DNA of 64,000 nt from a virus, in IMG/VR virus record IMGVR_UViG_3300005913_000002; one strand, given 5' to 3'. This document shows, in pieces, positions 4,417 through 57,166 of this stretch; positions within the stretch are counted from its first letter, which is position 1, and each line of letters begins with the position of its first letter. The notes below the pieces were generated by a model. That model did not search any database. It was not told the origin of the DNA and saw only the letters and a list, made by a program, of their open reading frames with translations. The translations under genes and the position numbers were made by a program.

Positions 4417-4421
4417 CATAC

Positions 4422-4445
4422 AGGGCAACTTAGTTGCCCTTTTTT
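4422..4445 (+). terminator. rho-independent terminator
   Basis: AGGGCAAC-TTA-GTTGCCCT followed by T run. Confidence 0.85.
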
Positions 4446-4452
4446 ATTTTGG

Positions 4453-4460
4453 TATAAATA
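4453..4460 (+). promoter_or_regulatory. T4-type late promoter TATAAATA
   Basis: Exact T4 gp55 consensus directly after terminator. Confidence 0.75.
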
Positions 4461-4502
4461 CTCGAATAATATACATCGCCGTCATGTGGAAAGGGAAACT
4501 GA

Positions 4503-10500: not shown

Positions 10501-10847
10501 CACTTATTGCATTAACAACTGATGAAGGAATAGTAGGAACTACTAATCAAATAACTTTGCTTGACAATTCTTCTTACACTTTTAAAGTGTTAGTGACTGC
10601 AAGAGCAACTGCTTCGAGCAATGGCGGTGCGTGGGAATTTAACGGAGTTATTACTAGAGATACTGGTGCAGGATCGACTAATATGAGAATTGTAAACAAA
10701 ACTAAAATATGGTCAAGTTTAACTGGGTACGATGTTGAAGTTGTAGCAGACACTGCAAATGGGTCTTTGCAAGTTAGTGCAAAAGGCCATGACAGTAATT
10801 TTGTTAGATTCGTTGCAAGAGTAGATACTGTAGAAGTAACTACCTAA
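4503..10847 (+). CDS. giant virion fibre protein with LamG/ConA-like domain (2114 aa)
   Basis: VYVS.SGND.NDG motif, LamG-like TLEAWV..WYHVA..GYIDEARVS, many GALxVxGG and TLQSVTxRG repeats. Confidence 0.7.
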   Translation: MAQADFIVKNGAVILNGLTATSTSTTSGALVIQGGIATSGQSTFGGNLNIVNTTTAVSDTTGALTVVGGVGITGDLWVKGVNLTQSDPHVVYVSESGNDANDGLLPQSSVQTIKQGLILARNIYDTTGQGADVSLHAGVYVEEFPLYVSTGTAVKGAGLRQVTVRPTTATNTFTGFLLDGETTISDFAITSFYKPGYAFAYAPNAKITTRSPYVERFSVITRGSNPTANDPYGYDSNDAGGGAYLDGSQVDKSSLEAAFLFNEATFITPSSTAIYATNGTRVELLNGFSYFSEKGIHFESGSEGWGGAGQTKLRLANTTGTFAVGDFLYYKGSTGTVVASGEIAAVDSDYIYIDGKASGFIESADRAGKVVNVYGNTEISSFQRKIGNGSVHFTTDGDLLDIVSDADLQYGTGAYTLEAWVFLDQGGRTQQIFNKGTTVATEFGLYIDSANKVTGQHSSTLMTGTSVLSTGTWYHVALSRDTGNNLYLFVDGGLEATDTSTANTTNGESLTIGGKTGVASNSIRGYIDEARVSSVARYTAGFTPLTISFNSDISTTVLIHGDGADTSIDIKDDGQGSQNVYTTTATSEDSVIASAQAIILADYRQFGGELRSIGSAVCYGNYGIYADGEGVDLKAIAFNMSYIGSGKDLSNDATLAVQANEIISLNGAKVYYQTVDHIGDFRVGPEFRINQRTGNVDFGTANFRLGPLSSLTVSDGVNAVVVQPSSISVGSLLLGGNRIQTISGNLILDPNGSLTTIESDLQVNGGLNFTGQFLATSVANSTSTTTGAIVVSGGIGLAKDLYVGGNATVAGNLIVKGLTTTVNSTQTSISDPVLDLGTGADNTDIEINDGWDRGLLFHYNTSPTQSVASYTRSFFGMDNASEDLVYKVGVANGTLTSLDPDFSSLGSYGGAKFGRLYLELLTPGSPSDGALVVKGGGSIAGELYVQNTQVVTTGTINQYAVTEAIGGEDIDVDVNIGIVTFTNTSTLQSVTSRGSQTDQIVYFTNTTNSFNTITGAVVITGGLGVGQDIHAEDIYSNGALVVTEGTIGALGITALYAGTDTAVSSQTGIVYVWSTSTLETVTSRGSSTSHIITFTNTEESTATDNGSVVVSGGVGVGGNLNASQIFANVGYFIGGNSSVSETTGDLIVTGGAGIGENLNIAGITTVLSNQSSIDTSTGALLVVGGVGIGQDLNVEGEITSNIGQLTLNGISSLINATSNLDITGGSNLGITSVGQLTIGSSLAVVFTDTSVVYINGTVNATNSGSGALVVAGGAGFGGNIYAANIFSNNSQVITSANLGAFGVTSLTTGSGISISTTTGAVIIESIDTLQDVTNRWSTTTNIVTIQNDTAASNTATAALIVQGGGIASDSLYTNFAIVGTNLQVDGSAQINDVSDASNETTGVLTVAGGVGVAKSLWAAALYDDGQRVVTKINPNSGPGITITDEIGIGTATSFTINNAGVIAAVGSAYIGISSATGIVTITNLGVQTLTAGTDTSVSRSTGTVTIWSTSTLQSVTNRGATTDNAISITNTTDANTSTAGALIVGGGAGVAKNLIVGGNAAVYGNLQVYGKQTYVNSTQTVITDPVIGVGAGIDNSNLGVNDGLDRGILMHYNTTATENIFYDNHAFLGMDNATQTLVYKTDVYPEGVQEFPALFSNTGSFGLAQFGGLSLTNNTVASNTSTGALTVDGGVGIGGALYVKDAIFVNGNQVLTSGGGGGSGYVEALYAGTDTAVSANAGEVTIWNTSTLHSVTERGNQTAFNIIIGNVTTASNATENGAFKVSGDTILSKSAFIVNNAILGAELPAASDSNANLFLPFRGTPGTYRNYVELQAVNANDVSNLDGGAFIKFRTSTTAAYGPEIGGVRRASGDGDFVIRTGSNTPQDRVTVKDDGDVVMTGDLSAGSLQNTPVGSVTSSTARFTTLEANGAVKLTNTTEATSSVDGAVVVGGGLAVGSNIVVGPGAETRGVKNANIYASGSFTTAGDAQAGTYVLRKSLGTTSLIALTTDEGIVGTTNQITLLDNSSYTFKVLVTARATASSNGGAWEFNGVITRDTGAGSTNMRIVNKTKIWSSLTGYDVEVVADTANGSLQVSAKGHDSNFVRFVARVDTVEVTT

Positions 10848-10856
10848 AAATAAACA

Positions 10857-10864
10857 TATAAATA
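10857..10864 (+). promoter_or_regulatory. T4-type late promoter TATAAATA
   Basis: Exact consensus in short intergenic gap. Confidence 0.75.
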
Positions 10865-10885
10865 TTGGATAAGAGTTAGAAAACT

Positions 10886-13800
10886 ATGGCAATAAATTTT
10901 GATACCAACACACCAGGCAGCGTAACGCTTAAATCGCCGTCAACGGGCACTGTTACCTTAACATTACCTGATACTGCTAATACCAGCGGTTGGCAACTAG
11001 TATTAGCAGATAACACAGGCACATTAGAATTTGTGCCTCCTGGCACCGGCGCAAGCGGCGTAGCAGGTGTAGACGGTGCTACCGGTGCTACTGGTCCTAT
11101 TGGTGCAAGCGGAGCAACTGGCGCTACTGGCCCAGTGGGCGCAAGCGGCGCAGCAGGAGCAAACGGATCTACCGGTGCTACAGGTCCTATTGGTTCAACT
11201 GGGTTAAGCGGTACAGTAGGTAACGCAGGCTCAACCGGTGCTACAGGATTTACTGGTGCTACAGGAGCAACCGGTGCTACAGGATTTACTGGTGCAACAG
11301 GCGGCATTGGTGCTACGGGCGCTGCAGGCGGCGCAGGTTCAGCAGGAGCAACAGGTGCTAGCGGATTGGGGTACGATGTTACATCTACAACTAGTCATCC
11401 AACAGCAGTAGGTACTAGAACTTTTACTGTTAACAAAGCAAATGCTTATGTAATTGGCGGCCGAGTACAAATTACTTCTACAGCAGTTCCTACAAACTAT
11501 ATTCAAGGTACTGTTACGGGTATTGTGGGATTAAACATAACTGTTAGTGTAGATTCAGTAGCAGGTTTTCCGGGCCAAACTTACAGTTCTTGGAAATTTT
11601 CAGTTGCCGGCCTAAACGGAACAACAGGCGCTACTGGGCAAACAGGTGCATTCGGATCAACAGGTGCAACTGGTCCGGGCGGTAATACAGGTAATGACGG
11701 TGCTACTGGTGCTACCGGTATTCAGGGTAACCAAGGATCAACAGGTGCTACAGGTCCTCAGGGAGCAAGCGGCTCAGCCGGTGGCGCAGGAAACCAAGGT
11801 TCGACAGGAGCAACTGGTTATACTGGAACTACAGGTGCTACTGGTGCAACTGGTTTACAGGGAACAACCGGTGCTACAGGACCGAGCGGAGTCGGCGGCA
11901 CTACGGGCGCAACTGGTTTTAATGGATCAACCGGTGCTACAGGTCCTAGAGGAGCAGGAACATGGACTCCTATTTTAGGAACAGGAGTATCATCTACTGA
12001 TTATACAGTGTTTACAAAAACTGGTGGATCAAACGGTGCTTGGGATGTTCATGTATATTCAGCAGAAGGATTTGTAAGAGGTGCCGCAGTTGCAGCAAGA
12101 GCAGGCGGGACTGCTACTTATCGTGTGATGTTTGGTTTAAACAGTGATCCTGCTGCAAATGCAAGTTTCTCTTCAATTGATTATTCATACTACATGAATA
12201 ACGGTTCTGTTGCAATTTATGAAAGCGGAGCAAGTGTAGCAGGTAGTTGGGGAACATATACTACTTCAACAGAATTTCAAATTACTTACGATGGATATTT
12301 TGTAAGGTATTACAAAGACGGAGTAATGCAGAGAGAAGTTTCCCGTATAATGGGAACTGCATTATATTTTGATAGTTCGTTTAACTATACAAATAATTCA
12401 TTAACTAATGTGTCATTTGGTATGGCTGGCGAGTTAGGCCCTGAAGGTGCTGCTGGTGCAGGTATTGGTGCTGGCGGAGCAAACCAAGTTATCTATAAAG
12501 ATAGTGGAAACTTATTTGCTGGTAGTAATAATTTAACATTTGATGGTTCAAATTTAAATATCGGTGGCGCATTACAGTTTGACGGTAAAATAAACTGGGA
12601 TAGTACTACTGGTACCACGCAAAAAGGTTCTCCAACTATTGCGTTTCACAGTGTTCGAAGCGGACTAAAACATCCCAGTTACTTGGACGAAAACTTCTTA
12701 AGCGGAAGTAACAACATCAATGTTTACAATAACTCTGGTGGTAGTAATGTAACTATTACTCGAACAGCAAATAACTCAACTATTAATGCTCCTACTACTA
12801 GCGGATATGTTTTAACAATTAATCATACAGGAACTGTTGCAAGTCCTGGGTTTGGTGGTTTTAACTTTGCCGTAGGTACTAGAGCCAATGCAATTTTAGT
12901 TTCAACTTTTACAGCGAAATTACCAACAGGCAGAACAATTAACTGGGGTTCTAATGCCATCGGTACTAACGGAACAAGTTACTGGTTAACTAATAATACA
13001 GGCACAGGCAAGTGGGAAGAATATTCTTATGTTGTTATATGTGGCAATAGTGGTAGTTTTAGTAGTACTCACTTTTTCTATGTAACTGGCGGTGCAGCAC
13101 CTAGTGCAGGAGCACCATTAACTTGGTATTTGGCAAGCAGTGCAATTTATGATGTAACTGATCAAAGAAGCGATGTACTTTATCTAGATCGTGTCGGCAG
13201 CACCCCTAACATCAAAGGATACGGTGAAGGACAGATCATTATTGATGGATCTACTACTGGCAAGGGTGTTTATCTAAATCATTATGTAAATGGCAACGTC
13301 TATGCTGCAAGTGGCGGCGGCAAACTAGCAGTAGGTGGTGGTACTGGTCCGACGTATACATTAGATGTTTACGGTACAGGTGCAGTTAGAGATTACTTCC
13401 GTATTACCAATGCTGGTGGCGCACAGAAACTGTTAATGGGTAACCAAGATAGCAGCGGCACTAATAATCCTAATATTATTACAGCGGCTAACGGTACGCT
13501 GTCATTTGGAACAGGAAACACTTGGGCTACTAGTGGCGGCACTGTTAGTAATTTTGCAACTTTTGCAAGTGCAGGAGCAACAATTGTAGCAGGATCAGGT
13601 ACAACACCTGCTCTAAAAATTAACCCAGGCGGAAACAGTTGGAGTGAAGGTATTCGAATTAATCCTAGCCCAGGTGGTTGGTCCGGACTATATCTCCCTT
13701 CTACAGCAGACGTTACCGGCGGCACATGGTTAATAGGTAAAGCAGGCGGACTTGCCAACCAGTTCATCTTAATGAAGAACGGATTTACTGGATCTGTAGC

Positions 13801-16800
13801 AGTACGCTCAGATGCTGCCTTTGACGTAAGTTCGACTACAGGTAGATTTACATTTGGTTATAATCCGTATGTAGGTACAAATCAAATATGGCACGCAGGA
13901 AACTTAACTGATGCAAGTCAGTTGGGCAACAGTGGCGGATATGTCGGCGCTGGCGGCATTGCAACATTTCAATATGTAAGAACAACAGGCGGCGGCCTTG
14001 CTGATACTTCTGGAACATCATCAGCACTAAGAATCTATGCTCCTGGAGGAGCAGCATACGCTACTGGAACTAATGCAGTAACTGGTGCTATTAAAATTCG
14101 GTTACCGCAGTATCGTTCATCTACAATGATGAGAATGACTGTCAAGATTTTCGAATACGCTGGTGGAACTGGTGCAGGAACTAGTAGAAGTATCGAACTA
14201 GGCGGATACAACTATGGTCCAGGCGGCTGGTATAACACTTTTGCTACACAAGAAACTGACGGTGGCGGAAACATTAATGTACGCTTCGGACATGACGGAA
14301 CGAAAAATGCTATCTGGATTGGAGAAACCGGAACAGTATGGTCATACCCACAAATTTTTGTTACAGAGTTTCAAGCAGGGTACAATAATTTTGGATATAC
14401 ACAATGGGTAGACGGCTGGTCGGTTAGTATAGACAGTAGTTTTGGTACAGTTGAAACCAACATAACTGCTGCAAGAATTCACACTAGCGATAACCTAACT
14501 AACCTAAGTCAGTTGACTAACGGTCCTAGTTTTGTATCTGCATACTATACAGGACCTACTGACTTCCGTGGTGGCGATCACATGTTTACATCTGAAGGAA
14601 CTGGCGCCAGCACTATCAACAACAGCACCTATGCTCTACAAGTTGGTCCCTTTAACAATCGTATTACAACTGCAAACAGTTACTACGGCGGTATTGCGTT
14701 TAACCATTTGTTAAACTACAGCGGCGGTACATTAAACGACGACAGCACAAGTTATAATACTTCGCCGCATGCATGGATAGGTTTGCGATTGCATGATACT
14801 CCTGGTAGCGAACGAAGTTTCTTAGTATTTGCTACCAAGCCAGGTACTGGTACTAGTAATGCTGGCGCAGACATACCTAACGAACGTATGACAATTGATC
14901 CAGTTAATGGATATGTTGGTATTAATGTACCTGATCCTACTCATAGATTACATGTTAACGGTGACGTTCGTTTCCAAGGCAATAGTCGTGCGTACTTTGG
15001 TCCTAATAGTACATGGGGTGCAGATTTAATTATCGGCGGCAATGGTAGAACTGACGCTACTAAGTCTACTGTGGCGGCAACTAATGGAAATTTACACATT
15101 GACGCTGCTAACGGCTATGATTTGTACTTAAACTATTACAGCGGCCGTCCTATATATGCAAGAGGCAGCAATACAAACTGGGACAGTGGTAATTTAAGTA
15201 ATTTAAGTCAGTTGACTAACGGTCCGGGATTTATTACATCGAGCGGTTCAGCAGGCAGCATCAGTGGTGTCACTATTGATCGTATTGTTTACGGACAAAA
15301 TTCTACTAAAACAACAGAAACCGGGTTAACACAAGCACTTTCTTCTGGATTCTATAACGCCTATAACAACGGTACTCCTACAGGTACATGGTATACTGCA
15401 ATACATGTTCGCCATACTAACACTGGTAATAATTACGGCGGCCAGATTGCAATGAGTTTCTACAACGACGGTGATATTTACAATCGTCGCATTGAAAACG
15501 GCAGTTACAGTACTTGGCGTAAAATTTGGAACAACTTTAATTTAACTAACCTAAGTCAGTTGACTAACGGACCTGGATTTTTAGGCAAGTTTGGTAATAC
15601 TTATTATCAATTAGATACATGGTTGCAAGGTACAGGAACACACGGCTTATATTTTCCAAGCAGTGGAGCAGGAACACACTTCCATCCTAACCCTGCAACT
15701 TACGGTTCATTCTTAGTCCAAGGAAGCAAGAACGGATATTGGGGCCAGATGTATTTGACCAGCACAGGTCAGCAGGGTATGATGACCTCCGGAAACCTTG
15801 TTGGCTGGTACAATCATAGCGGTGGATGGAAGTTCCGTTTCAACAGCGGTGATGTGTTCTACGTCTATAGTGCATCAAACGGAGGCGGCTCTGCAAGAAC
15901 AGTATGGCATAATGGTAACTTAACTAACCTAAGTCAATTGACTAACGGACCGGGCTTTGTTACAGGAGCAAGTCAGTCATTAAGTTACAGAGGAGCAATA
16001 ACAGGCGGCTCTCAAACAGAAGGAGTATTAAACTCCGGTTGGTACACAGTAAACGAATCAGGATATGGCACATTCTTGTTCCATATGGGCGGCGCCACTT
16101 CATCTACTCGTAGTGTTCAAATGTATTTCCACTACGATGATCGCATGTGGATTAGAACTGGACGAAACAGTGAAACACAATGGGACGGTGTTGGAAGATA
16201 TTCTAGATTAGTATGGACCAATGGATCATTGACTAACCTAAGTCAATTGACTAACGGACCGGGATTTGTTTCAAGTGGGAGCAGTCCTACATTCCAGGAA
16301 GTTTATGTCAACGGTTGGTTCCGTAACAACACTAGTGGCAACGGTTTATATAACCAGGGAAACGCAAACCACTGGTATGCAAGCGCAGGCAACTACTGGG
16401 ACACTGGGCTAACTACGTCTGGCGGTATTAGACTGCGTATTGGTTATAATGGTACGGTTAGAGGACACTTATATTGTGATACTAGCAGCAACTCAGGTCT
16501 ATTAAACCAAAGCGGCTCGTGGAAAGTTCGTGTTAATGGTAGCGACACTGAAATTTACGATCTGTTATATTGGAATGATGGCCGTGGATACATCTTCTAC
16601 GATAGAAACAATACTGGTTATTATGTAGACCCTGCAAGTACATCTAACCTTAACGTTATTAACAATGAAGGTCAATATGGTAGATGGTGGGAACCAAAGG
16701 GCGTAGGTGGCAACAGCGGTAACGGTGGCCACGCATATAGAATTTTCCAAGAAGGCGGTGGCTGGGGATTTCCATATCCTGACTTACGTATTGCATTCCA

Positions 16801-17524
16801 TACTGGTATTAAGTTTGGTGCAAACACAAGTTATGAAGGTATGCGTTTCTACACTGATTACGATATGAGTAGTCGTGTTATGCAGGTCAACGGTGGTTCG
16901 AACTATATCTACATGGACCGCTGGATTAACGTTGCTGGTAGCCAAGGTATATTTTCTGGTACCAACGGTGCCCACTTTTATCCAAATAACGCAACTTACG
17001 GAGCATGGAGAGTAGACGGAACACGAAATGGTTGGTGTGGTATACACTTTACTACTAGTGTAGCGTTAATGATGAATAACAATGACGGTGGTATTCATCG
17101 AGAAGGTGATGGATGGAAGTTTTATTTTAGTGGTAATAACATTTATGCAAGAGGAGAAGTTACTGCTTACTGGTCAGATCGTAGATTAAAACAAGATATT
17201 ACTCCGTTAACAAAAGGTTCTGGTCTAGAACTTATTGATAAACTAGTACCATCTCACTTTGTTTGGAATGCATTAGCAAGAGAAGTAAATCCAGAGTTTA
17301 AAGAAGGACAAGAAGAAACTGCGTTAATTGCTCAAGAAGTGCAAGAAATATTACCAATTGCTGTTGCTGAAAATAAAGCAGGTAGAAGAGCAGGTAAAGG
17401 TTCTAGCATGGAGAGTTATCTAACTGTTAAATACGATAAGATAACGCCCTACTTAATACAGGCAATTAAAGATCTAAAAGCAGAAATAGAAGAACTAAAG
17501 GAAAAAATAAATGGCTCTAATTAA
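10886..17524 (+). CDS. long tail fibre: collagen-like N-term, modular receptor-binding region, C-terminal peptidase S74 chaperone (2212 aa)
   Basis: Gly-X-Thr triplets; pyocin-knob-like and shufflon-like (GWFRN..G.GLYNQ) modules; WSDRRLKQDI..LIAQEV..V.YDKI..LIQAIKDL S74 signature. Confidence 0.85.
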   Translation: MAINFDTNTPGSVTLKSPSTGTVTLTLPDTANTSGWQLVLADNTGTLEFVPPGTGASGVAGVDGATGATGPIGASGATGATGPVGASGAAGANGSTGATGPIGSTGLSGTVGNAGSTGATGFTGATGATGATGFTGATGGIGATGAAGGAGSAGATGASGLGYDVTSTTSHPTAVGTRTFTVNKANAYVIGGRVQITSTAVPTNYIQGTVTGIVGLNITVSVDSVAGFPGQTYSSWKFSVAGLNGTTGATGQTGAFGSTGATGPGGNTGNDGATGATGIQGNQGSTGATGPQGASGSAGGAGNQGSTGATGYTGTTGATGATGLQGTTGATGPSGVGGTTGATGFNGSTGATGPRGAGTWTPILGTGVSSTDYTVFTKTGGSNGAWDVHVYSAEGFVRGAAVAARAGGTATYRVMFGLNSDPAANASFSSIDYSYYMNNGSVAIYESGASVAGSWGTYTTSTEFQITYDGYFVRYYKDGVMQREVSRIMGTALYFDSSFNYTNNSLTNVSFGMAGELGPEGAAGAGIGAGGANQVIYKDSGNLFAGSNNLTFDGSNLNIGGALQFDGKINWDSTTGTTQKGSPTIAFHSVRSGLKHPSYLDENFLSGSNNINVYNNSGGSNVTITRTANNSTINAPTTSGYVLTINHTGTVASPGFGGFNFAVGTRANAILVSTFTAKLPTGRTINWGSNAIGTNGTSYWLTNNTGTGKWEEYSYVVICGNSGSFSSTHFFYVTGGAAPSAGAPLTWYLASSAIYDVTDQRSDVLYLDRVGSTPNIKGYGEGQIIIDGSTTGKGVYLNHYVNGNVYAASGGGKLAVGGGTGPTYTLDVYGTGAVRDYFRITNAGGAQKLLMGNQDSSGTNNPNIITAANGTLSFGTGNTWATSGGTVSNFATFASAGATIVAGSGTTPALKINPGGNSWSEGIRINPSPGGWSGLYLPSTADVTGGTWLIGKAGGLANQFILMKNGFTGSVAVRSDAAFDVSSTTGRFTFGYNPYVGTNQIWHAGNLTDASQLGNSGGYVGAGGIATFQYVRTTGGGLADTSGTSSALRIYAPGGAAYATGTNAVTGAIKIRLPQYRSSTMMRMTVKIFEYAGGTGAGTSRSIELGGYNYGPGGWYNTFATQETDGGGNINVRFGHDGTKNAIWIGETGTVWSYPQIFVTEFQAGYNNFGYTQWVDGWSVSIDSSFGTVETNITAARIHTSDNLTNLSQLTNGPSFVSAYYTGPTDFRGGDHMFTSEGTGASTINNSTYALQVGPFNNRITTANSYYGGIAFNHLLNYSGGTLNDDSTSYNTSPHAWIGLRLHDTPGSERSFLVFATKPGTGTSNAGADIPNERMTIDPVNGYVGINVPDPTHRLHVNGDVRFQGNSRAYFGPNSTWGADLIIGGNGRTDATKSTVAATNGNLHIDAANGYDLYLNYYSGRPIYARGSNTNWDSGNLSNLSQLTNGPGFITSSGSAGSISGVTIDRIVYGQNSTKTTETGLTQALSSGFYNAYNNGTPTGTWYTAIHVRHTNTGNNYGGQIAMSFYNDGDIYNRRIENGSYSTWRKIWNNFNLTNLSQLTNGPGFLGKFGNTYYQLDTWLQGTGTHGLYFPSSGAGTHFHPNPATYGSFLVQGSKNGYWGQMYLTSTGQQGMMTSGNLVGWYNHSGGWKFRFNSGDVFYVYSASNGGGSARTVWHNGNLTNLSQLTNGPGFVTGASQSLSYRGAITGGSQTEGVLNSGWYTVNESGYGTFLFHMGGATSSTRSVQMYFHYDDRMWIRTGRNSETQWDGVGRYSRLVWTNGSLTNLSQLTNGPGFVSSGSSPTFQEVYVNGWFRNNTSGNGLYNQGNANHWYASAGNYWDTGLTTSGGIRLRIGYNGTVRGHLYCDTSSNSGLLNQSGSWKVRVNGSDTEIYDLLYWNDGRGYIFYDRNNTGYYVDPASTSNLNVINNEGQYGRWWEPKGVGGNSGNGGHAYRIFQEGGGWGFPYPDLRIAFHTGIKFGANTSYEGMRFYTDYDMSSRVMQVNGGSNYIYMDRWINVAGSQGIFSGTNGAHFYPNNATYGAWRVDGTRNGWCGIHFTTSVALMMNNNDGGIHREGDGWKFYFSGNNIYARGEVTAYWSDRRLKQDITPLTKGSGLELIDKLVPSHFVWNALAREVNPEFKEGQEETALIAQEVQEILPIAVAENKAGRRAGKGSSMESYLTVKYDKITPYLIQAIKDLKAEIEELKEKINGSN
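13901..16263 (+). repeat. six dispersed in-frame direct repeats (NLTNLSQLTNGPGF) in tail fibre gene
   Basis: Core TAAGTCARTTGACTAACGG; AGTCARTTGACT begins at 14507, 15206, 15554, 15932, 16241, with a degenerate copy at 13916. Confidence 0.9.
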
Positions 17525-42690: not shown

Positions 42691-42993
42691 ATGAGCAGGC
42701 TTACACCAGGTGCATCATATTCTTATGAAAAAATTGATGGGGTGACATACGCACAGGAATTATCATCAACTGAAAAAATAATCATAGGGTGGGATTGGAG
42801 TTCAGATGACCAATTACTGGCGCCTGAACATATTAGATCAAAACTTGATGATATTAAAGAAAAGAATTTATGGAATGAAATTCGAAGAGTAGCCCGGACT
42901 AATGTTACCTTGCAAAAAGCATTAGACCAGTGTATAATTATACATCACCTCAGTAAAGACAACCCTAAACCACTAGATTGGCATCCAGTATAA
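42691..42993 (+). CDS. hypothetical protein (start moved to ATG 42691)
   Basis: In-operon ORF. Confidence 0.55.
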   Translation: MSRLTPGASYSYEKIDGVTYAQELSSTEKIIIGWDWSSDDQLLAPEHIRSKLDDIKEKNLWNEIRRVARTNVTLQKALDQCIIIHHLSKDNPKPLDWHPV

Positions 42994-43454
42994 TGGCAGC
43001 AAAATTAGACATTGGCAAAGAACTAAGAGCAGTAAATTCTAGAAATTATGATTTCTATAATAACCTTACTGACGAAGAAAAGAAAGCATTTAGTCCGTAT
43101 CTCCTAATGAGGTTCGTGGGCAATCCTCAGTCTGATTCTGAAACTTATGAATTTACAATTGATCGTGTTAACGAATTTGTAAACAAAAATCATTGGGAAC
43201 TAAGCAAAGGTCATAAACCGTTGCTATGGAAAATGTTTGCAAGTTGCGGTACCGGCACGTCTTTGCGATATACATATCTTAAATCAGGTACGAAAGAAAA
43301 AGCAAACAAAATTGAAAAATTGTTAGAAGAACTGTATCCTGCTATGAAGATGAGTGATATTAAATTACTTGCATCTATGATGGACAAAAAAGATCGAGAC
43401 GAACTATTTGATAAAATGGGTTTTGACAAAAAGCAACGGAAAGATTACGAGTGA
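42993..43454 (+). CDS. putative clamp-loader small subunit (gp62-like)
   Basis: EKKAFSPYLLMRF..VNE..YLK pattern recalls gp62; replication cluster. Confidence 0.45.
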   Translation: MAAKLDIGKELRAVNSRNYDFYNNLTDEEKKAFSPYLLMRFVGNPQSDSETYEFTIDRVNEFVNKNHWELSKGHKPLLWKMFASCGTGTSLRYTYLKSGTKEKANKIEKLLEELYPAMKMSDIKLLASMMDKKDRDELFDKMGFDKKQRKDYE

Positions 43455-44146
43455 TTAAACTAGAAGAACAACCTTTTAACTGTGTACATTGCGGTAAGGC
43501 GTTTATGAAAGAAAAAACGCTAATTGCTCACATGTGCGAGCAAAAACGTAGAGTATTACAGAAAGAAGAAAAGCGAGTTCAGGTAGGATTTTTTACATAC
43601 AACAGATTTTATCAACTAACACAGAATGCCAAAAAACAAAAGTCTTATTCTGATTTTTGTAAAAGCAGTTACTATAATGCATTTGTAAAATTTGGCAGTT
43701 TTATCAATAATGTTAATCCGTTATACCCTGAACGATTTATTGATTGGGTGATTAAAAGCGGAGTTAAATTAGATCACTGGTGTCGAGATGAATTATACGA
43801 CAAGTATCTAGCGGATCTTGTAAAAATAGAACCTGCCGAAAGTGCAGTACAACGTAGTTTGCAATATATGATGGAATGGGCTGAAGAACAAAATGCAGAG
43901 TATACACATTACTTTAGATATGTAAGTGTTAATCGTGCAGTATATCATATTCGAGATGGAAAACTTTCACCGTGGTTAATTCTTAACTGTTCAGAAGGCG
44001 TTGAGTTATTGAGAAAGTTTAGCGACGAACAATTGGAAATAGTTGATAAAATTTTAGATTTTGGGTTTTGGTCAAAGAAATTTAAAGAAACTCCTGCTGA
44101 TGTTGCATTGGTTAAAGAAGTATGTAGGGAGATAGGAATTGCCTGA
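43451..44146 (+). CDS. zinc-finger protein (C2H2/C2HC-like N-terminus)
   Basis: FNCVHCGKAFMKEKTLIAHMC. Confidence 0.6.
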   Translation: MIKLEEQPFNCVHCGKAFMKEKTLIAHMCEQKRRVLQKEEKRVQVGFFTYNRFYQLTQNAKKQKSYSDFCKSSYYNAFVKFGSFINNVNPLYPERFIDWVIKSGVKLDHWCRDELYDKYLADLVKIEPAESAVQRSLQYMMEWAEEQNAEYTHYFRYVSVNRAVYHIRDGKLSPWLILNCSEGVELLRKFSDEQLEIVDKILDFGFWSKKFKETPADVALVKEVCREIGIA

Positions 44147-44726
44147 TATTGACTTAGACTTTGCTAATAGACAACTAGCATTAGATAAATTAACTCACAT
44201 TACTGCATCTCGTGCCGAGAACGGAGATTTTAAAAAGCACAACACTGGCGTATATTGTCACGTTATTCCGTATAATCCATTAACTGGCCTATCTGCAATT
44301 GAGTATAAGAAAGCAGAAGATAGAGGATATTTTAAAATAGACTTTTTAAATGTATCTGCTTATCAAGGAATAAAAAACGAGGAACAACTTGAACAGTTGT
44401 TAAAAATTGAACCGCTATGGGATCTATTAGAAGATTCTGCGGTATGCGATCAGATGTTTCACATTAACGGATATCATAATATGATTGCTAAACTTAAACC
44501 TCGTAGCATTGAGCAGTTAGCCATGTTTCTTGCTCTCCTCCGGCCTGGTAAGAAACATCTCATCCCAGTATGCAACGAAAAAGGTTTCGATGCTATTGAA
44601 AATGAGATATGGGTTAAAACAGAAGATGCTTATTTCTTTAAAAAGGCTCATGCTGTTGCGTATGCTCATGTAATTGTGGTACAACTAAATTTACTATGTG
44701 AAAATATTAGTTACGGTTTTTCTTAA
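44139..44726 (+). CDS. miniature family-C (DnaE/Pol III alpha-like) polymerase core
   Basis: PDIDLDF, KHNTGV, GYFKIDFL, LALLRPG, YFFKKAHAVAYA in DnaE order; TTG start with GGAG/AGGA RBS. Confidence 0.8.
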   Translation: MPDIDLDFANRQLALDKLTHITASRAENGDFKKHNTGVYCHVIPYNPLTGLSAIEYKKAEDRGYFKIDFLNVSAYQGIKNEEQLEQLLKIEPLWDLLEDSAVCDQMFHINGYHNMIAKLKPRSIEQLAMFLALLRPGKKHLIPVCNEKGFDAIENEIWVKTEDAYFFKKAHAVAYAHVIVVQLNLLCENISYGFS

Positions 44727-45090
44727 CGTTTCTAACCAGTTGAATGCTTTTACGTTTAACTCGTTTTTCTGCAATTTCACCTAAATTTACAATTGGTCCA
44801 AATATTATTTCAACATCTTTACTGTTAAATGTTTTAACATATGGTCTAAAGTCTATCATATCCTGTTTTAAGAATATGTTGATTGGAATTTTTCTATTGG
44901 ATTCCCACCACCATGTTTCTCCTAATTCTAGAAATAATTTTCTTTCTTCCTCAGAACGTATATCAGCATAACTATAGATGCTGGTAACATTGAGGTCGTA
45001 GTTGATTACTATTCCGATATATTCGTTAACCGATGTTTTTACACCGGTTATAAACGGAAAGTTTTTCTGAAAGTCGTCCTTACTGGTCAT
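44707..45090 (-). CDS. hypothetical protein
   Basis: 127-aa ORF, WWWESNRKIPINIFL. Confidence 0.6.
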   Translation of the reverse strand: MTSKDDFQKNFPFITGVKTSVNEYIGIVINYDLNVTSIYSYADIRSEEERKLFLELGETWWWESNRKIPINIFLKQDMIDFRPYVKTFNSKDVEIIFGPIVNLGEIAEKRVKRKSIQLVRNVKKNRN

Positions 45091-46216: not shown

Positions 46217-47209
46217 ATGAACCTCATACAATCAACTGTACAAACTTTCTTACCTGGTAAAAGAAAGGCTACTCCTAGCGGTTGGACAAGTTTTAATGCA
46301 GTCTGCTGTCACAATAGAGGCGAAAAAACAGACACTAGAAAACGTGGCGGGGTTCTTTTTAACGAAGAAGGATTTCAATATCACTGCTTCAATTGTAATT
46401 TTAAAGCAGGATGGAGCCCGGGCAGACTACTAAGTAAGAATACAAAAGACCTGTTTCGTTGGATGGGTATGGCCAATGACGAAATAACCAAATTAAATCT
46501 AGAGGCATTGCGATCTAAAGAAGACGCAGAGGTAGTAAAAACCCCAGTTATAAATTTTAACCTAGAGCCAAGATTGCTTCCTAAAGATAGCAAGCCGATA
46601 ATTGAATGGTTAGAAGAAGATCCTAATTCGGATGTTATTGCCTGTGCTGATTATATAGTTAATCGAGGTATGGAATTAGATTGGTACAACTGGCATTGGA
46701 GTCCAGAAAATGGTTATAGAGATCGATTACTTTTGCCCTTCTACTGCAATCAAGAGACAGTAGGATGGACTGGAAGAAAGATAACTGAAGGTAAACCAAA
46801 ATACCTAACTGATGCACAGGCCGGATATGTATTCAACGTAGATCCGCAACAAGATGATAGAGAATATGTATTAGTAGTAGAAGGACAGTTTGATGCCATT
46901 GCAGTAGACGGAGTGGCAATTATGCATAACGAACCTAATGCAACACAAATAGCAAGAATAAAAATGTTGGGTAAAACAGTTATTGTAGTACCGGACAGAG
47001 ATAAACCCGGGGCAAAAATAATAACAGCGGCATTAGAAAATGAATGGGCGGTTAGTATTCCGCCGTGGGAATCAGATATAAAAGATTGTGCCGATGCAGT
47101 TAAGAAATATGGTAGGCTATATACACTACTTACAATTATTAACTACAAAGAAACGAACAAGATAAAAATACAACTACTAAAGAAAAAACTAGAAAACTTA
47201 GATGAATAA
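46217..47209 (+). CDS. DNA primase, gp61/DnaG-like
   Basis: Zn ribbon (CC..HCFNC), GR..PKY, TOPRIM VVEGQFDA..PDRD..G, KD..D. Confidence 0.88.
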   Translation: MNLIQSTVQTFLPGKRKATPSGWTSFNAVCCHNRGEKTDTRKRGGVLFNEEGFQYHCFNCNFKAGWSPGRLLSKNTKDLFRWMGMANDEITKLNLEALRSKEDAEVVKTPVINFNLEPRLLPKDSKPIIEWLEEDPNSDVIACADYIVNRGMELDWYNWHWSPENGYRDRLLLPFYCNQETVGWTGRKITEGKPKYLTDAQAGYVFNVDPQQDDREYVLVVEGQFDAIAVDGVAIMHNEPNATQIARIKMLGKTVIVVPDRDKPGAKIITAALENEWAVSIPPWESDIKDCADAVKKYGRLYTLLTIINYKETNKIKIQLLKKKLENLDE

Positions 47210-48650
47210 ACCAAACTATAATGCAGAGATGCAAAAACTGTATCTCGAAATGTTTTTAGGAGATGCAGAAACTTTTGTACGCTGTCAAAACATTTTCGAT
47301 CCGGAAAACTTTGACAAGCGTTATCAAGATGCGGCAACCTTTATTACCAAATATGTTGACGATTACAAGGTAATGCCAGAAGTTACCATTGTTAATGCAT
47401 CTACTAGTAATTCGTTCGAATCTGTTGCGCTTGCAAAGGAAAACTATGAATGGTTGCTAAATGAATTTGAAACTTTTAGCAGGCATAAAGGCCTTGAGAG
47501 AGCGATTCTTAAATCAGCAGATATGTTGGAAAAAGGTGAGTACAATCCGGTTGAGAAACTGATTAAAGACGCTATTCAAATTAGTTTGAGCAGAGATATG
47601 GGAACTGATTACTGGGATGATCCTCGTGCTCGATTGTTGCGAATGAAAGACAATAATGGACAGATTTCAACTGGCTGGCCAAGCATTGATAGAAAGTTAT
47701 ACGGTGGTTTTAAAAGAGGCGAACTTAATATTTTTGCTGCCGGGTCAGGTGGCGGCAAGTCATTGTTCTTAGCAAACTTAGGTGTAAACTTTTCACTTGC
47801 CGGTTTAAATGTTGTCTACTTTACATTCGAACTTTCGGAAGAGTTAGTAAGTATGCGGATTGACTCGATGATTACCGATATTGCAGCCAAAGAAATTTTC
47901 CGCAACATTGATGATGTAGAAATGAAGGTTAAGATGACAGGTCGACGTGCCGGTGGAATGCAGATAAAGTACATGCCTTCAGGTAAGAATTGTAACGATT
48001 TGCGGTCATATTTAAAAGAATTTCAGGTTAAAACAGGAAAAAAACCTGACATTATTTTAGTAGACTACTTAGACCTTATGATGCCGCTATCTGTTAAAGT
48101 CAGTCCAAGTGATCTGTTTGTTAAAGACAAATATGTATCAGAAGAACTTCGTAACTTTGCTATGGAAACGCAGTCAGTAGTAGTCACTGCGGCACAGTTA
48201 AATCGTTCAGCAGTTGAGGAAGTTGAATTTGATCACAGTCACATCAGCGGGGGCCTGAGTAAGATTCAAACAGCAGACAACGTTATTGGTATCTTTACAA
48301 GCCGAGCAATGCGTGAGCGAGGCCGCTATCAAATTCAGTTTATGAAAACTCGGTCATCAAGCGGTGTTGGTCAAAAAGTTGATTTGGAATTTAACATTGA
48401 TACATTACGCATTAATGACCTAGGTGAAGAAGCAGAAGAGCAAAGTTTTGCAAGTCAGCGTAGTGCAGCAAGTAGTGCGCTAATTGACGGGTTAAAGAAA
48501 ACAAGTTTAGTAACTAGTACTAACGTAGATCCCGAAACAGGCGAAATAGATCCTACAAAAGGAATGCCAGTTTCTAAGATTGCAAAATCGAGCATGCCTA
48601 CAAGAAATGCTAGAGATATGTTAAATGCGTTTAGTCCCGAAAAAGACTAA
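47202..48650 (+). CDS. gp41: replicative DnaB-like helicase, T4 gp41-like
   Basis: STGW..ID..GG, AGSGGGKS, VDYLDLM, TAAQLNRS, TAD, KTR. Confidence 0.92.
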   Translation: MNKPNYNAEMQKLYLEMFLGDAETFVRCQNIFDPENFDKRYQDAATFITKYVDDYKVMPEVTIVNASTSNSFESVALAKENYEWLLNEFETFSRHKGLERAILKSADMLEKGEYNPVEKLIKDAIQISLSRDMGTDYWDDPRARLLRMKDNNGQISTGWPSIDRKLYGGFKRGELNIFAAGSGGGKSLFLANLGVNFSLAGLNVVYFTFELSEELVSMRIDSMITDIAAKEIFRNIDDVEMKVKMTGRRAGGMQIKYMPSGKNCNDLRSYLKEFQVKTGKKPDIILVDYLDLMMPLSVKVSPSDLFVKDKYVSEELRNFAMETQSVVVTAAQLNRSAVEEVEFDHSHISGGLSKIQTADNVIGIFTSRAMRERGRYQIQFMKTRSSSGVGQKVDLEFNIDTLRINDLGEEAEEQSFASQRSAASSALIDGLKKTSLVTSTNVDPETGEIDPTKGMPVSKIAKSSMPTRNARDMLNAFSPEKD

Positions 48651-49207
48651 AACCAATTAGATATATTATTTTTGGTAATATAATCAATTCCGTGTATCCA
48701 TTGATCTTCTTCGTTTAAATGAAACACTGCCTCTATTGTAGCAGGAGCATCTACCCAACTATTGGCAGGACTCCATGGCTCTTGACCAAAATATTCTCCG
48801 TCAAGTTGTTTAGGTGCCCATTGGCATATACCCAAGCATGTTCTAAATAATGCAGGCCCTTCGTTACCTGCAATTGCGGCCAGTATAGATATGTCAGTAG
48901 TAACACCTATATCTTTGGTAATTTGCATTGTAGTAGGTGCAGTCCAATCTAAGGTATGTACAATATATACTCTATTAGTGTCTACCGGACCTCCTATATA
49001 GACCTTATCTTCTTTTTTAGAAAGTATTCCAGTTTGCCGCATTATATGATCTAATGTAATTTTTTCGGTAGGTTTATTGACTACGAGACCCCACGATCCT
49101 GTCGGACTGTGTTTTCCTACTATGATAACAGATTTGGAAAAATAAGTATCTGCGTTATTTGGGCGAGATGCAATAATTTGTCCGGTTAGGTCTTTCTTTT
49201 CAATCAT
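48647..49207 (-). CDS. YqgE/AlgH (DUF179) family protein
   Basis: FSKSVI..H...GSWGLVVNKP..VYIGGPV..H..G...W...QL..E..W. Confidence 0.85.
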   Translation of the reverse strand: MIEKKDLTGQIIASRPNNADTYFSKSVIIVGKHSPTGSWGLVVNKPTEKITLDHIMRQTGILSKKEDKVYIGGPVDTNRVYIVHTLDWTAPTTMQITKDIGVTTDISILAAIAGNEGPALFRTCLGICQWAPKQLDGEYFGQEPWSPANSWVDAPATIEAVFHLNEEDQWIHGIDYITKNNISNWF

Positions 49208-49212
49208 TGAAA

Positions 49213-49231
49213 TATTTACCGGAAATAAATA
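49213..49231. promoter_or_regulatory. back-to-back late promoters
   Basis: TATTTA at 49213 and TAAATA at 49226, each 5 nt from an ATG. Confidence 0.7.
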
Positions 49232-49236
49232 AAGAT

Positions 49237-49923
49237 ATGAGCATGTTTGAATATACTGATCCTATCGAGATCCACAGCACCTTAAATCCTGTATTATGGA
49301 AGGACGATCACTTACGATCTAATGTAAGAGTTGCACTATTAAAAATTGCAAAAGAATTTTATGCATTTTTAGATTTAGATGTTACTTTGTTAAATTTAGT
49401 AGTTTCAGGTAGTCAAGTTAATTACAACTATACCAAACATAGCGATTTAGACCTACACCTAATTGTTCCCTACAGTCAAGTTAACTGCGACGTTGCAGTA
49501 GACGAATTGTTTGATGCAAAACGCAAACTCTGGGCACAACAACATGATATTAATATTGCAGGTGTTCCTGTTGAACTATATGTAGAAGATGTAGACCATC
49601 CTCCAGTTAGTAGCAGTTACTCTGTTATCAAAGGTGAATGGATTAATCGTCCTACTCAAGATGCAGTCAAATATGACAAACCAGAAGTAGAACGAGTATT
49701 TGCTATCTGGGAACGAGCAATTGACGGTGCAATTGCTACGGGAAATTTAGAAATGTGTCGCAATATTAAAGACATGTTAAAAATGTATCGTAAGGCTGGT
49801 CTTGCACAAGCAGGTGAATTTGGTGTCCCTAATCTAGTATTCAAAGCACTGCGTAACGACGGACAAGTAGGCAAACTCATGGATGCGATTGGTAAATTAC
49901 ACGATAGACAAATGAGTATATAA
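49237..49923 (+). CDS. Pol-beta superfamily nucleotidyltransferase (start moved to ATG 49237)
   Basis: GS.VNYNY..SDLDLH..VELYVED. Confidence 0.75.
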   Translation: MSMFEYTDPIEIHSTLNPVLWKDDHLRSNVRVALLKIAKEFYAFLDLDVTLLNLVVSGSQVNYNYTKHSDLDLHLIVPYSQVNCDVAVDELFDAKRKLWAQQHDINIAGVPVELYVEDVDHPPVSSSYSVIKGEWINRPTQDAVKYDKPEVERVFAIWERAIDGAIATGNLEMCRNIKDMLKMYRKAGLAQAGEFGVPNLVFKALRNDGQVGKLMDAIGKLHDRQMSI

Positions 49924-52855: not shown

Positions 52856-55800
52856 TCATAAACCAGCGGCAGATAATCTTGCTTCTAATTCTTCAACTTT
52901 AGCAGACAGTTCTTGAATAGACTTTGTTAACACCGCAGTTAGTTTTGGATAGTCCACACTTAATGTGCCGTCACTATTTGTTCCGACTACTTCAGGAACA
53001 ACTTGCTGTACTTGTTGTGCAAGAAAGCCGATTTCAGTCTGTGAACCAAATCTTTCAGTATCTATCCAATTAAACTTAATTGAATTTAATGCAAGTGTAG
53101 CAGTAAGTCCTTGATCAATCGGATGTACATTTGTTTTTAAATTTGCATCTGAGGAACTATTAGTAACTTCGCCCTCTTGGCTTGAATACACTGCTCGGTT
53201 TCCGACGCCTTGTAAACTCTTAACAAATAAATTTTCTCCAATTCCTACTCCACCTGCAACTACTAGCGTTCCACTAAAAGTATTTGTTGCAATAGTAACA
53301 CCTGACAAATATAATTGAGTAGCAGTACTTGTAGGTCTACTGCCTGCAACTGCAAAGGTCCAAGTGCTAAATGTAACAATATCTTCGTCTGGACTTAAAA
53401 AATACTCGTCAATTAATATGGTCCAGTCTGTACCTGTTCTTGCAACTAATGTTCCTTCCAAGTAACTTAAAAATGCACGTTCTTTGACAATTGCTCTTAT
53501 TCTTTGCCCAGTAGTATATGCATGCTCTTCACTTTCAACGGCAAACTGTACCTCAGTATCAGAACCTATAGTTGCTAAACTAACAGGATTATCATATGCC
53601 CAAAGAACATACCCGAGACCTGGCTGGCCTATAAGTCCGTTTTCGCCTGCTATGCTAATTGCCCAAGAACTACTCGAAAGTCCTAGCGTTCCTTGAGCGT
53701 AATCCGATATAAAAATCAACGACGTAGTGGCTAAATTTACACTTTCGACTTGTCCGTCCATATAACTAAATGGTTGAGAATTAATTGCTCCTGCTCTAAT
53801 TCGCATACCTGCGGTGTATCCCGATACATTTGGAGTACCGTTAACATCGTATAAATCTGTAAATGTTTTAGTTCCTGTGCTAACAGTATTAGTCGAACTA
53901 CTAAAAGCAAGTAGTGCCGGACCTGTCGGACCTACTGGACCTTCGACGCCGGTAGCGCCTATTGGACCAGTCGCTCCGTCAGCACCTGTTGCGCCTGTTG
54001 CGCCTGTTCCGCCATTTCCACCATTAGGTCCAATTGGCCCAGTCGCACCTTGTATAGATCCATCAACTACTACTGTACTACTATCATTTAATGTAAGTAT
54101 TAATGTAGTACCTGTAACACTGGCAGTAGTAACATATTGTCCTTGAGGACCTGTAGCACCTGTGGCGCCAACTCCAGTAGCACCTGCAGGTCCAGTAGCA
54201 CCTGTTGCGCCTGTAGCACCTTCTGCTCCCGGATTTCCTTGCGCCCCTGTAGCACCCTGACCAGTAGCACCGGTTGCGCCTAAATCACCTGTAGGTCCAG
54301 TTGCACCTTGCGGACCAGTAGCACCTGTAGTTCCTAATGCACCTGTTGCACCTGTTGGACCAGTAGCACCTGTGGTACCTTGTACACCAGCACCAGTTGC
54401 ACCTTCTGAGCCTGTAAGTCCAGTAGCACCAATTACTGATCCAACGTTAATTTCGCTAGCATCATTTAATACTAACAACAATTCTGTTCCTGTTATTGAA
54501 GCAGTTGTAATATATAGTCCAGTGGCGCCTGTAGCACCTTGGGCAGCAGCACTTCCATCAATACCTTGCGGACCTTGTACACCGGTTGCGCCAGTTTCTC
54601 CTGTAGCACCAGTTGCACCAGTAGCACCTTCTGGTCCGAGTGGTCCTATTGGACCTGTTGCACCTTGTACACCAGTAGACCCTGGCACCGTAGAGTCTGC
54701 ACCTGTTGCACCTGAAGGTCCTGTTGCACCTGTTGCACCATCAACTCCGATTGTCCCAGTAGCACCTGTAGGACCTGTTGCACCAGTAGCGCCTTCGCCA
54801 GTTGCACCTTGTACACCCGTTGCTCCGTCATTGCCTTGATTTCCTTGCGCACCAGTAGCGCCTGTAGGACCAACAATATTACCGGCATTAATTTCACTAC
54901 TATCATTTAATGTAATTAACAAATTTGTTCCGGTTACAGTAGCAGTAGTAACGTATAATCCTGTGGCACCTTGTGCTCCAGTGGCACCATCATTGCCAAT
55001 AGCACCAGTTGCGCCAGCGCCAGTTGCGCCTGCAGGACCAGTTGCGCCTTGAACACCTGTAGCGCCTGTAGCACCGTCTGCACCAGTTGATCCAACTCCA
55101 CTAGGTCCTGTGGAACCTGCTGGTCCAGTAGCACCAGTTGTGCCAGGAACTATTGAGTCTGCGCCGGTGGCACCTATTTCTCCTTGTGGACCAGTGGCGC
55201 CTGTTGACCCGTAACTGCCAGTAGCACCAATTGCACCTTGTGGGCCAGTAGCACCAGTAGCGCCGTCGATACCTATGCCACCATCTGCTCCTGTAGCACC
55301 TATGCCACCATCTGCTCCTGTAGCACCTGAAACAGGGCCTGCATCAATTTCAGTCGAATCATTTAAAATAATAACTAGATTAGTGCCACTAATAGTAGCA
55401 CTAGTTACATATAGTCCTGTTGCACCTGCAGGTCCTGCTTCTCCCGTAGCGCCAGTAGCACCTGCACCTGTAGCACCAACATTCCCTGCAGGTCCTTGCG
55501 CACCTGTAGCACCCGGTAAACCAGTAGCACCTGTTGAACCTGCACCAGTAGCACCATCTGGTCCGGCAGGACCTGTGGCGCCAGCCGCACCAGTAGCGCC
55601 TTGTGGACCAGTTGCTCCGCCTGGATCGCCTGTTTCTCCTTGTGGACCTGTAGATCCAATTAAACCAGTTGCTCCTACAGGACCAGTTGATCCGGTTGAT
55701 CCAGGTCCGCCAATGGGGCCTTGAGGACCAGTTGCACCTGTAGTACCTTGTACACCTGCACCAGTAGCACCTTGATATCCTTGAATACCCAACGGTCCTC

Positions 55801-57166
55801 TTTCACCAGTAGCACCAGTAGCACCGCTGCCTGTTGCACCAGGTCCGCCTGTGGCGCCTTGTGGTCCAGTTGAACCAACTTCGCCTGCTACGTTAACAAA
55901 CCAAGTTGTTAATGTTGTAGCAGTACCCTGTGTACGGTCAACATATACTGTAACTGTAGAACCAGTAGTGTCATATGCAGTAATTTGTCCTTCTAACCAT
56001 TCGTTAACAGGAATACCGCTGGCATAGTTTTTAGCACGAACTCGCTGTCCAATTGACCAAACGGCTAAACTTTCTAAAACAAACACTTTTGCACCAGTGC
56101 CAATTGTAATAGAACTGTTTGAATAAACTCCGACACCTAATCCGTCTGGGCCCTGCACTCCAGTAGCACCCGTTGGACCAGTAGCACCGATTAGACCTGT
56201 AGCACCTGTAATACCGTCTACTACACTCAATGTTCCTGTGGAATCTACTGCAAGGCCAGCGCCGATAATAACACCGCCTAGTGTAGCAGTTGTAGCAGTG
56301 GGTAAAGTATACTGATTAGCACTTAGTAATCCTGCTGGAGTAATAGTCAACCCATTTCCAACTTGAATAACACCTACTGATGCTGTGGTTGCTGTAGAAA
56401 CCGCAACCTGTATTGTGGCAGTATCAACACTGACAACACCGGCATTTACCAATAAGCCGTCTCCAACTTGCATGATACCTTTTAGGGATTCGCTTGCAGT
56501 TGGAATACTGTTTAGATCGTTGAAGTTACCGCTGATACCCACAGCACTAACTGTTTGCACACTAGCATCAATTTTCCTACGGTCAAGGTCAAAGAATTCA
56601 AAATCAACACCAGTGCGGCTTGAAATTTCAATACCAAATACGCCGCTGGTCTCAAACGTCATTTCGCCGCTGACGCTGTTGAAGTTTACCAATCTAGTCA
56701 CGTTGGTAATACTGCTGACATCGCTGAATGTCACAACAGTAGCAGTAGACGGAACTGAAACATACACACGCATTGTGGCATATTGGTCTACTGGAAACTG
56801 TTTTAATCCTAAGGTAACGTTGGGAAACGCTTCTACATAATGTATCGGTGCTTCGTAGTAACTTAGAGCAACTGTGCCGCTTTGCGGGCCATGATTGAAC
56901 AAGCGTTGTGTCCAATCTGCTAGTTGTACTTCACGCAGTTCTGCACCTACCATGTAGTTTTGAAAGTCGTCTGCGTTTTCTACTCTAGTTGTGCTGGTAG
57001 TGCCTTTTACTGTGGCATTACGTTGCAGCCCTGTAATTTCGTCACGGGCAGCAGTTAGGCCTTGTACAGTGCCTTGAAAATTGTCTCTAAATCCCTGCGA
57101 ACTGTTATTTTGTCCTGATACAGGAAACTCTGGGTTAATTTGTGTTGGGTCGATATTGCTTGTCAT
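52856..57166 (-). CDS. collagen-like tail fibre with S74 chaperone (1436 aa)
   Basis: Long Gly-X-Thr tracts, 4x YVT.A...GT.L...LND.S linker, SSDANLK..GFLAQQV..VDYPKL..L.KSIQEL. Confidence 0.85.

Follow-up and report, generated by a model that had tools for sequence, protein, structure and literature searches.

We report that the 195-aa product of the open reading frame at 44139-44726 is, by its sequence homology, a further member of a family of split phage DNA polymerases described in 2021, and that its likely partner is not the adjacent zinc-finger protein but a GRGSS protein of about 175 aa that relatives encode in a distant gene. Together the two chains probably form a minimal, distributive, non-proofreading accessory DNA polymerase that would carry out short-patch synthesis beside a family-B polymerase. 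The initial annotation implied that the mini-polymerase was new, but the split enzyme had been published from sequence in 2021, as passages of that paper make clear (PMC7824862). What we add is three natural fusions of 375-376 aa and a residue-level audit, neither of which appears in those passages, and the observation that the steric-gate His is retained in a protein that has lost the canonical triphosphate-binding basic residues.

The gene and its reading frame

The window, by which we mean the whole 64-kb stretch of viral DNA analysed here, is part of a T4-like jumbo-phage genome, in which terminase and structural genes are followed by SSB, UvsX, UvsY, a DNA helicase, primase and DnaB. The order from SSB to DnaB is the same as in Phosso and PBECO4. 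The reading frame of interest is unbroken, as first annotated, and the ribosome-binding site claimed for it corresponds to a GGGAG that is a consensus match only (Table 1). Its first 8 nt are shared with the end of the upstream gene, stop codon included. In three sequencing runs, each from a separate study and none flagged as a possible source of the record, contigs cross the gene with zero substitutions and zero gaps, so it is not an assembly artefact. This stretch of DNA is present in salt-lake and freshwater metagenomes; the datasets listed as containing it include no RNA dataset, and a promoter scan stayed at chance level (24 vs 17.3 +/- 5.4).

All of the DnaE motifs originally quoted for the protein were found, in the order claimed: PDIDLDF at residues 2-8, KHNTGV at 33-38, GYFKIDFL at 63-70, MFHI at 106-109, PRSIEQLAMFLALLRPG at 121-137 and YFFKKAHAVAYA at 165-176. 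Their key residues can be mapped onto E. coli Pol III alpha (Table 1), for which we took residue roles from PMC8485763 and bioRxiv 10.64898/2026.06.29.735100.

Table 1. Features in and around the polymerase gene, and residue equivalences of its product.
Feature	Position	Strand	Remarks
C-terminal half of split minimal DNA polymerase III alpha (predicted)	44139..44726	+	195 aa, TTG start
Shine-Dalgarno-like GGGAG	44127..44131	+	7 nt before TTG, within end of upstream gene; consensus match only
231-aa protein with N-terminal C2H2-like zinc finger	43451..44146	+	PHROG 11058; context, conserved in cluster
127-aa gene	44707..45090	-	PHROG 11637; context, convergent, overlaps 3' end of C-half gene
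DNA primase and DnaB-like helicase genes	46217..48650	+	conserved downstream context
Catalytic, thumb and primer-binding equivalents in E. coli alpha			D3/D5/D68 = D401/D403/D555; H34 = H511; K66 = K553
Template-loop and steric-gate equivalents in E. coli alpha			R135-P136-G137 = R639-P640-G641; Y165 = Y754; H171 = steric-gate H760

Homology and fold of the C-terminal half

PHROG 11778, labelled "DNA polymerase" (197 positions), matches residues 3-189 of the 195-aa protein with an E-value of 3e-63. Pfam gave only a weak match to the Pol III finger domain, NCBIfam gave no DnaE match, and a single-sequence search of the PDB returned nothing relevant, so both a profile and a fold were needed. When a profile of 98 family sequences was run against the PDB, the hits at E<1e-3 were Pol III alpha chains only (best 7e-6), and the profile aligned with residues 539-641 and 739-771 of E. 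coli alpha. The AlphaFold2 model of the protein has a pLDDT of 95.7 and a pTM of 0.87, and its Foldseek matches at E<0.6 are DnaE or PolC without exception. With VIA, residues 1-192 of the model aligned to E. coli alpha 401-781 over 186-189 residues (Z 7.8-8.0). The best seven VIA matches were all family-C polymerases, with Z from 6.5 to 9.8 (PolC 9.8), and the next, unrelated, had a Z of 4.3. Across family-C structures, Foldseek and VIA aligned 186-189 of the 195 residues with rmsd 2.9-4.0. The DnaE-palm fold, for which an AlphaFold check had been proposed, is thus borne out by a model that aligns end to end with the 401-781 region.

According to this model the protein is a family-C core from which two large segments have been lost, one in the thumb and one in the fingers. 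The initial annotation listed PHP, clamp-binding and OB domains, much of the fingers and the thumb as missing. The first three are indeed gone and the fingers are incomplete in comparison with full-length replicative DnaE, but the thumb is shortened rather than wholly absent, and its remnant is a beta-hairpin carrying H34. The chain also has no GS motif of its own; in relatives, GRGS is located in the partner protein.

Conservation and selection

The C-terminal half is common to thousands of uncultured phages, its homologues falling into 6345 clusters when grouped at 90% identity and being reduced to 401 representatives at 50%. By tblastn it occurs in 96 isolate records, 91 of which cover at least 80% of the query, and the isolates include Phosso, PA5oct, XacN1, Atu_ph07, RaK2, PBECO4 and 121Q. 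Identity to isolate proteins is 37-47% over 89-98% of the length among the 60 matches listed, and several of the isolate proteins matched by tblastn are already annotated as DNA polymerase or DnaE-like.

D3, D5, K66, D68 and P136 are invariant in 98/98 C-half sequences, in agreement with the claim that all three catalytic Asp (D3, D5 and D68) are kept, while D7, H34, R135 and H171 are conserved in 95-97 of them (H171 in 96). The stretch from the first Asp to the stop codon measures 187-193 aa across 46 distinct relatives. Over 162 unsaturated pairs, which are not independent of one another, dN/dS has a median of 0.125 and a maximum of 0.25, and by this measure the C-half is under purifying selection. 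For the N-terminal half described below, close pairs give usable values of about 0.08-0.4, and values over distant pairs are unreliable owing to saturation and a loose N-terminal alignment. The C-half corresponds to just one-sixth of alpha in length, and a host dnaE that had been captured and was decaying could leave such a fragment. The signs of decay named beforehand were variable length, lost Asp and dN/dS near 1, but we see a nearly constant length, invariant catalytic residues, a low dN/dS and thousands of clusters, and we give decay almost no weight.

In relatives, a distant gene encodes the N-terminal half

Using Pfam PF07733 we identified a GRGS gene of 172-177 aa in Phosso, Atu_ph07 and PBECO4, lying 224 kb, 182 kb and 31 kb, respectively, from the C-half. 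The PBECO4 pair consists of ACQ29_gp488 and a 172-aa gene at 239918-240433. The N-half is found by tblastn in 94 isolate records, with genus counts near-identical to those of the C-half. In IMG/VR, N-halves are about 163-189 aa long and end 33-36 residues past the GRG, typically in EFLK or EFLR, and the C-half starts M-P-DxD; there is no intein family match at this break. In G023, the nearest relative with both halves (its C-half is 69% identical to ours), the C-half is at 202.7 kb, the N-half near 50 kb and a family-B polymerase at 81.7 kb, so the halves are ~150 kb apart. The model of the G023 N-half aligns with alpha 278-393 (Z 10.0, rmsd 2.4) and the C-half with 401-781, and the two halves are therefore contiguous without overlap. 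Residues 1-70 of the N-half (L146:2998-3513) have fair folding confidence and were matched to no DnaE region; they could be a lineage-specific interaction domain.

The N-half sits in a gene block of its own (L004-L006, L114-L193, L217-L296), with a ~100-aa gene upstream in 145/160 loci, a gene of ~115-150 aa downstream in 142/160 and a GroES-like gene in 131/160. No N-half was found in the window, nor was GRGS in any of its frames. Among virus records the nearest, G001, is a fragment of 13.6 kb that contains neither half and so shows nothing, and a scan of metagenomes with the N-half profile gave 80 loci, none of them tied to this phage. Even so, the proposal that a split minimal polymerase is completed by a separate GRGS-motif gene holds up, since this gene is present in relatives, maps to the region of alpha just ahead of the C-half, and is fused to the C-half in three clusters.

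Natural single-chain fusions

Among sequences from ENA and Logan we found both halves in one chain in P0188 (375 aa; L113:1066-2193) and in P0271 and P0272 (376 aa each; P0272 at L194:519-1649), the latter two being 78-81% identical to P0188. The N-half profile covers residues 11-180 and the C-half profile 189-374, with a junction of 8 residues that runs uninterrupted through E. coli 319-417 in the alignment. The two fusions that we examined at the DNA level are single reading frames. The fused gene occupies the C-half locus, ahead of a homologue of the convergent 127-aa gene. We consider the fusion the best evidence in this analysis for the GRGS protein as the partner.

A quick tree, midpoint-rooted and unfinished, places the fusions together in a single clade (SH-aLRT 100) within a 99-supported group of stand-alone C-halves, and this nesting suggests, without fixing the direction, that the fusion is secondary. 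A search for longer homologues of the C-half returned nothing, which is uninformative given that fusions exist. We also guessed that the upstream neighbour of the fused gene came from the N-half operon; a comparison gave this no support. In practice, P0188, P0271 and P0272 simplify a first assay, as one gene has to be expressed instead of two.

Gene neighbourhood

Database searches confirmed the primase, the DnaB-like helicase and a DNA helicase encoded at 40729, and primase and helicase genes lie downstream of the C-half in most loci. The zinc-finger gene, which had been put forward as a possible completing subunit, is upstream of the C-half in 79 loci, but it is within 100 nt in only 30 of these, can be up to 3.7 kb away and is often parted from the C-half by inserted genes. 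Pfam, PHROG and NCBIfam searches found no family-C (DnaE) homology in the zinc-finger protein, which does not favour that role. A gp59-like identity for it had no support against the T4 sequence, a single target and hence weak evidence. The gene at 42993-43454 is a conserved gene (PHROG 11758); its gp62-like label does not stand, as its profile scored 0.8 bits against T4 gp62 (again a single target) and it had no Pfam or NCBIfam match.

The most constant neighbour is the convergent 127-aa gene, within 100 nt of the C-half in 71/85 loci. In most relatives, over a range that runs from PBECO4 to the fusion lineage, it overlaps the polymerase half, a tight linkage. The ESM Atlas gave no named family for either this gene or the zinc-finger neighbour.

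A family-B polymerase alongside in relatives

No family-B polymerase gene was found in the window, so gp43 is absent from it, as had been noted. All three isolates and all six complete IMG/VR genomes (among 21 long records picked for the N-half) carry a family-B polymerase together with both halves. In G023 it is about 120 kb from the C-half cluster. Complete relatives are typically 285-490 kb, of which the window would be a fraction; because the two halves and family B are far apart in relatives, the absence of both gp43 and the N-half from 64 kb is expected. The idea that the split enzyme stands in for a missing gp43 therefore fails, family B being present, far from the cluster, in every complete relative tested. 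As a separate observation, the family-B polymerase is apparently in two reading frames in L002 / L008, L011 (Atu_ph07) and G019 (418 + 578 aa; 764 + 338 aa).

Active-site residues

A 2026 preprint on the cryo-EM structure of E. coli Pol III lists the residues around the incoming dGTP (bioRxiv 10.64898/2026.06.29.735100). In E. coli alpha, R362A or K553A abolishes activity and His760 is the steric gate against rNTPs (PMC8485763; bioRxiv 10.64898/2026.06.29.735100), and R390A lowers efficiency 27-fold (bioRxiv 10.64898/2026.06.29.735100). The phage N-half retains R362, G363 and S364, with GRGS in 50/50 sequences. The C-half retains equivalents of D401, D403, D555, K553, H511, R639-P640 and F756, along with Y754 in 70/98 sequences and the steric gate H760 in 96/98. 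In the column of E. coli Arg390, 50/50 N-halves have Glu or Asp, Arg396 falls within the gap at the split, and Arg709, Arg710, Lys714 and Lys715 fall within the deleted finger segment.

With the canonical basic residues lost, dNTP binding needs substitutes, or the enzyme is slow, or it has another job. Conserved basic residues that could act as stand-ins, judging from the alignments, are K138 (88/98) and K168 (90/98) in the C-half and the terminal K/R of the N-half (46/50). From the effects of R362A and R390A, we infer that the C-half has no activity by itself and that the dimer probably works slowly. Retention of the steric gate would favour dNTPs over rNTPs, which argues against a primase.

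Proposed function and alternatives

We propose that the 195-aa protein is one of the two subunits, the C-terminal one, of a minimal family-C polymerase without an intein, of the group 2.2 (RaK2/PA5oct/Atu_ph07-like) type. The other chain, a ~175-aa protein whose gene is next to a GroES-like gene at a distance of tens to hundreds of kb, would supply the first part of the palm and the GRGS nucleotide-binding motif, and the C-half would contribute the three metal-binding Asp, the primer-binding Lys, the thumb hairpin, the RPG template loop and the steric-gate His, so that the two halves rebuild a single active site adding dNTPs to a primer on a template. Since it has no PHP, clamp-binding or OB domain and has lost the index finger and several triphosphate-binding basic residues, the enzyme would be slow, distributive and non-proofreading. 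Its job would be short-patch synthesis beside a gp43-like replicase, with primer extension near the primase and helicase, or gap filling in recombination-dependent replication, as candidate tasks. It is very likely that the halves form an active heterodimeric nucleotidyltransferase, both their binding and their activity being deduced, and, if they do, a role as a template-directed accessory polymerase is likely in turn. We also considered a new job for family C, either Pol-alpha-like extension of RNA primers before the family-B replicase or template-independent or protein-primed addition, because the Asp, the GS motif and the steric gate are kept and the triphosphate-binding arginines and processivity domains are lost; this strikes us as possible but doubtful and, if true, would be a new function in a family already described.

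The main rival, which we think unlikely, is that the two halves are an active nucleotidyltransferase working outside replication, adding one or a few nucleotides, untemplated or on a special substrate (DNA ends, nicks, a protein primer or modified dNTPs), in genome-end processing, recombination or counter-defence. The loss of the clamp-binding, OB and PHP domains and most of the fingers, the loss or replacement of the canonical triphosphate-binding Arg/Lys, the family-B replicase already in this phage group, and the placing of the N-half among GroES-like and unknown genes, away from replication genes, would all fit such an enzyme, but its primer and template contacts (K553, H511, R639-P640) and steric gate are nearly invariant, and the C-half is kept in a primase/helicase cluster in about 80 loci. 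Activity of the 195-aa protein alone, or with the adjacent zinc-finger or 153-aa protein, seems improbable: it has the three catalytic Asp and is modelled with high confidence on its own, and the zinc-finger gene overlaps it here and is upstream in 79 loci, but it is without the GS motif, from which E. coli alpha cannot spare Arg362, the zinc-finger gene is adjacent in only 30 of those loci and showed no family-C homology in the searches above, and the natural fusion joins the C-half to the GRGS half instead.

We think it very improbable that the enzyme is the main replicative polymerase, replacing gp43 with processivity and proofreading provided by other subunits. The window without a family-B gene and the position of the C-half amid SSB, recombinase, helicases and primase might suggest this, but 9/9 complete relatives tested carry family B at a distance from the cluster, and the window is a fraction of a genome. 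It is just as hard to credit that the heterodimer is dead or nearly so and serves as a DNA- or protein-binding factor, such as a primer-terminus cap or a decoy for the host replisome; several triphosphate-binding basic residues are lost, but three Asp and a GRGS that are invariant down to ~30% identity are hard to explain without catalysis. We hold stand-alone or neighbour completion, a main replicase, an inactive factor and decay all to be unlikely.

Comparison with known systems

In group 2.2 jumbo phages, a phage-specific minimal Pol III alpha occurs beside the family-B polymerase and is made of separate proteins from distant genes, an N-terminal one that binds NTP and a C-terminal one that binds Mg and template, and passages of the paper describing them suggest that it may cooperate with family B in the synthesis of one strand or in repair (Iyer et al. 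2021, Viruses 13:63, PMC7824862). The C-terminal unit corresponds to PHROG 11778 and the N-terminal unit to PHROG 11127. Our protein resembles this system in its family, in the cut just before DxD, in its gene neighbourhood and in the family-B polymerase alongside in relatives; it is a stand-alone C-terminal unit of the ~190-210-aa kind starting from DxDxD and is homologous to the isolate proteins. It differs in coming from an uncultured salt-lake/freshwater phage and in the lack of an N-half gene within the window. In the literature searched, the coverage of which is incomplete, we found no biochemical or genetic follow-up on the split enzyme.

Bacterial Pol III alpha/DnaE and PolC (E. coli 2HNH and 5M1S, T. 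aquaticus 2HPI, G. kaustophilus 3F2B) share with the phage enzyme the Pol-beta-like palm, the three catalytic Asp, K553, H511, RPG, Y754 and the H760 steric gate. The phage enzyme, however, has about 370 aa in two chains compared with 1160 in one. It is without PHP, clamp-binding, HhH/OB and tau-binding regions, its thumb is a hairpin, alpha 642-738 is reduced to about a dozen residues in the C-half, and there are no direct equivalents of R390, R396, R709 and R710.

Cyanobacteria also make one family-C polymerase from two distant genes, by trans-splicing of a split DnaE through a split intein, with the cut near residue 775. The phage enzyme likewise has two distant genes, but it is intein-free, its cut lies in the palm before D401, and its halves are predicted to remain separate chains.

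The discovery value is small, because both halves are already labelled DNA polymerase in databases and a sequence-based account of the split enzyme dates from 2021. If active, however, a family-C core of about 370 residues would be very small and would show the catalytic minimum of the bacterial replicase, and the enzyme bears on why a second polymerase is retained across a large group of jumbo phages.

Other features of the window

Just beyond the helicase, at 49207-49923 (+), is a second nucleotidyltransferase near the cluster, a 238-aa protein with a GS...DxD motif of the pol-beta type, a weak PF22600 match and PHROG 36119. On the opposite strand, at 48647-49207 (-), the phage has an AlgH/YqgE-like (DUF179) gene (E 3e-31). 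Finally, the regions 1192-17524 and 52856-57166 encode repeat proteins of great length that are rich in Gly/Ala/Thr and in some cases contain collagen-like GAT repeats; they are probably tail fibres or whiskers.
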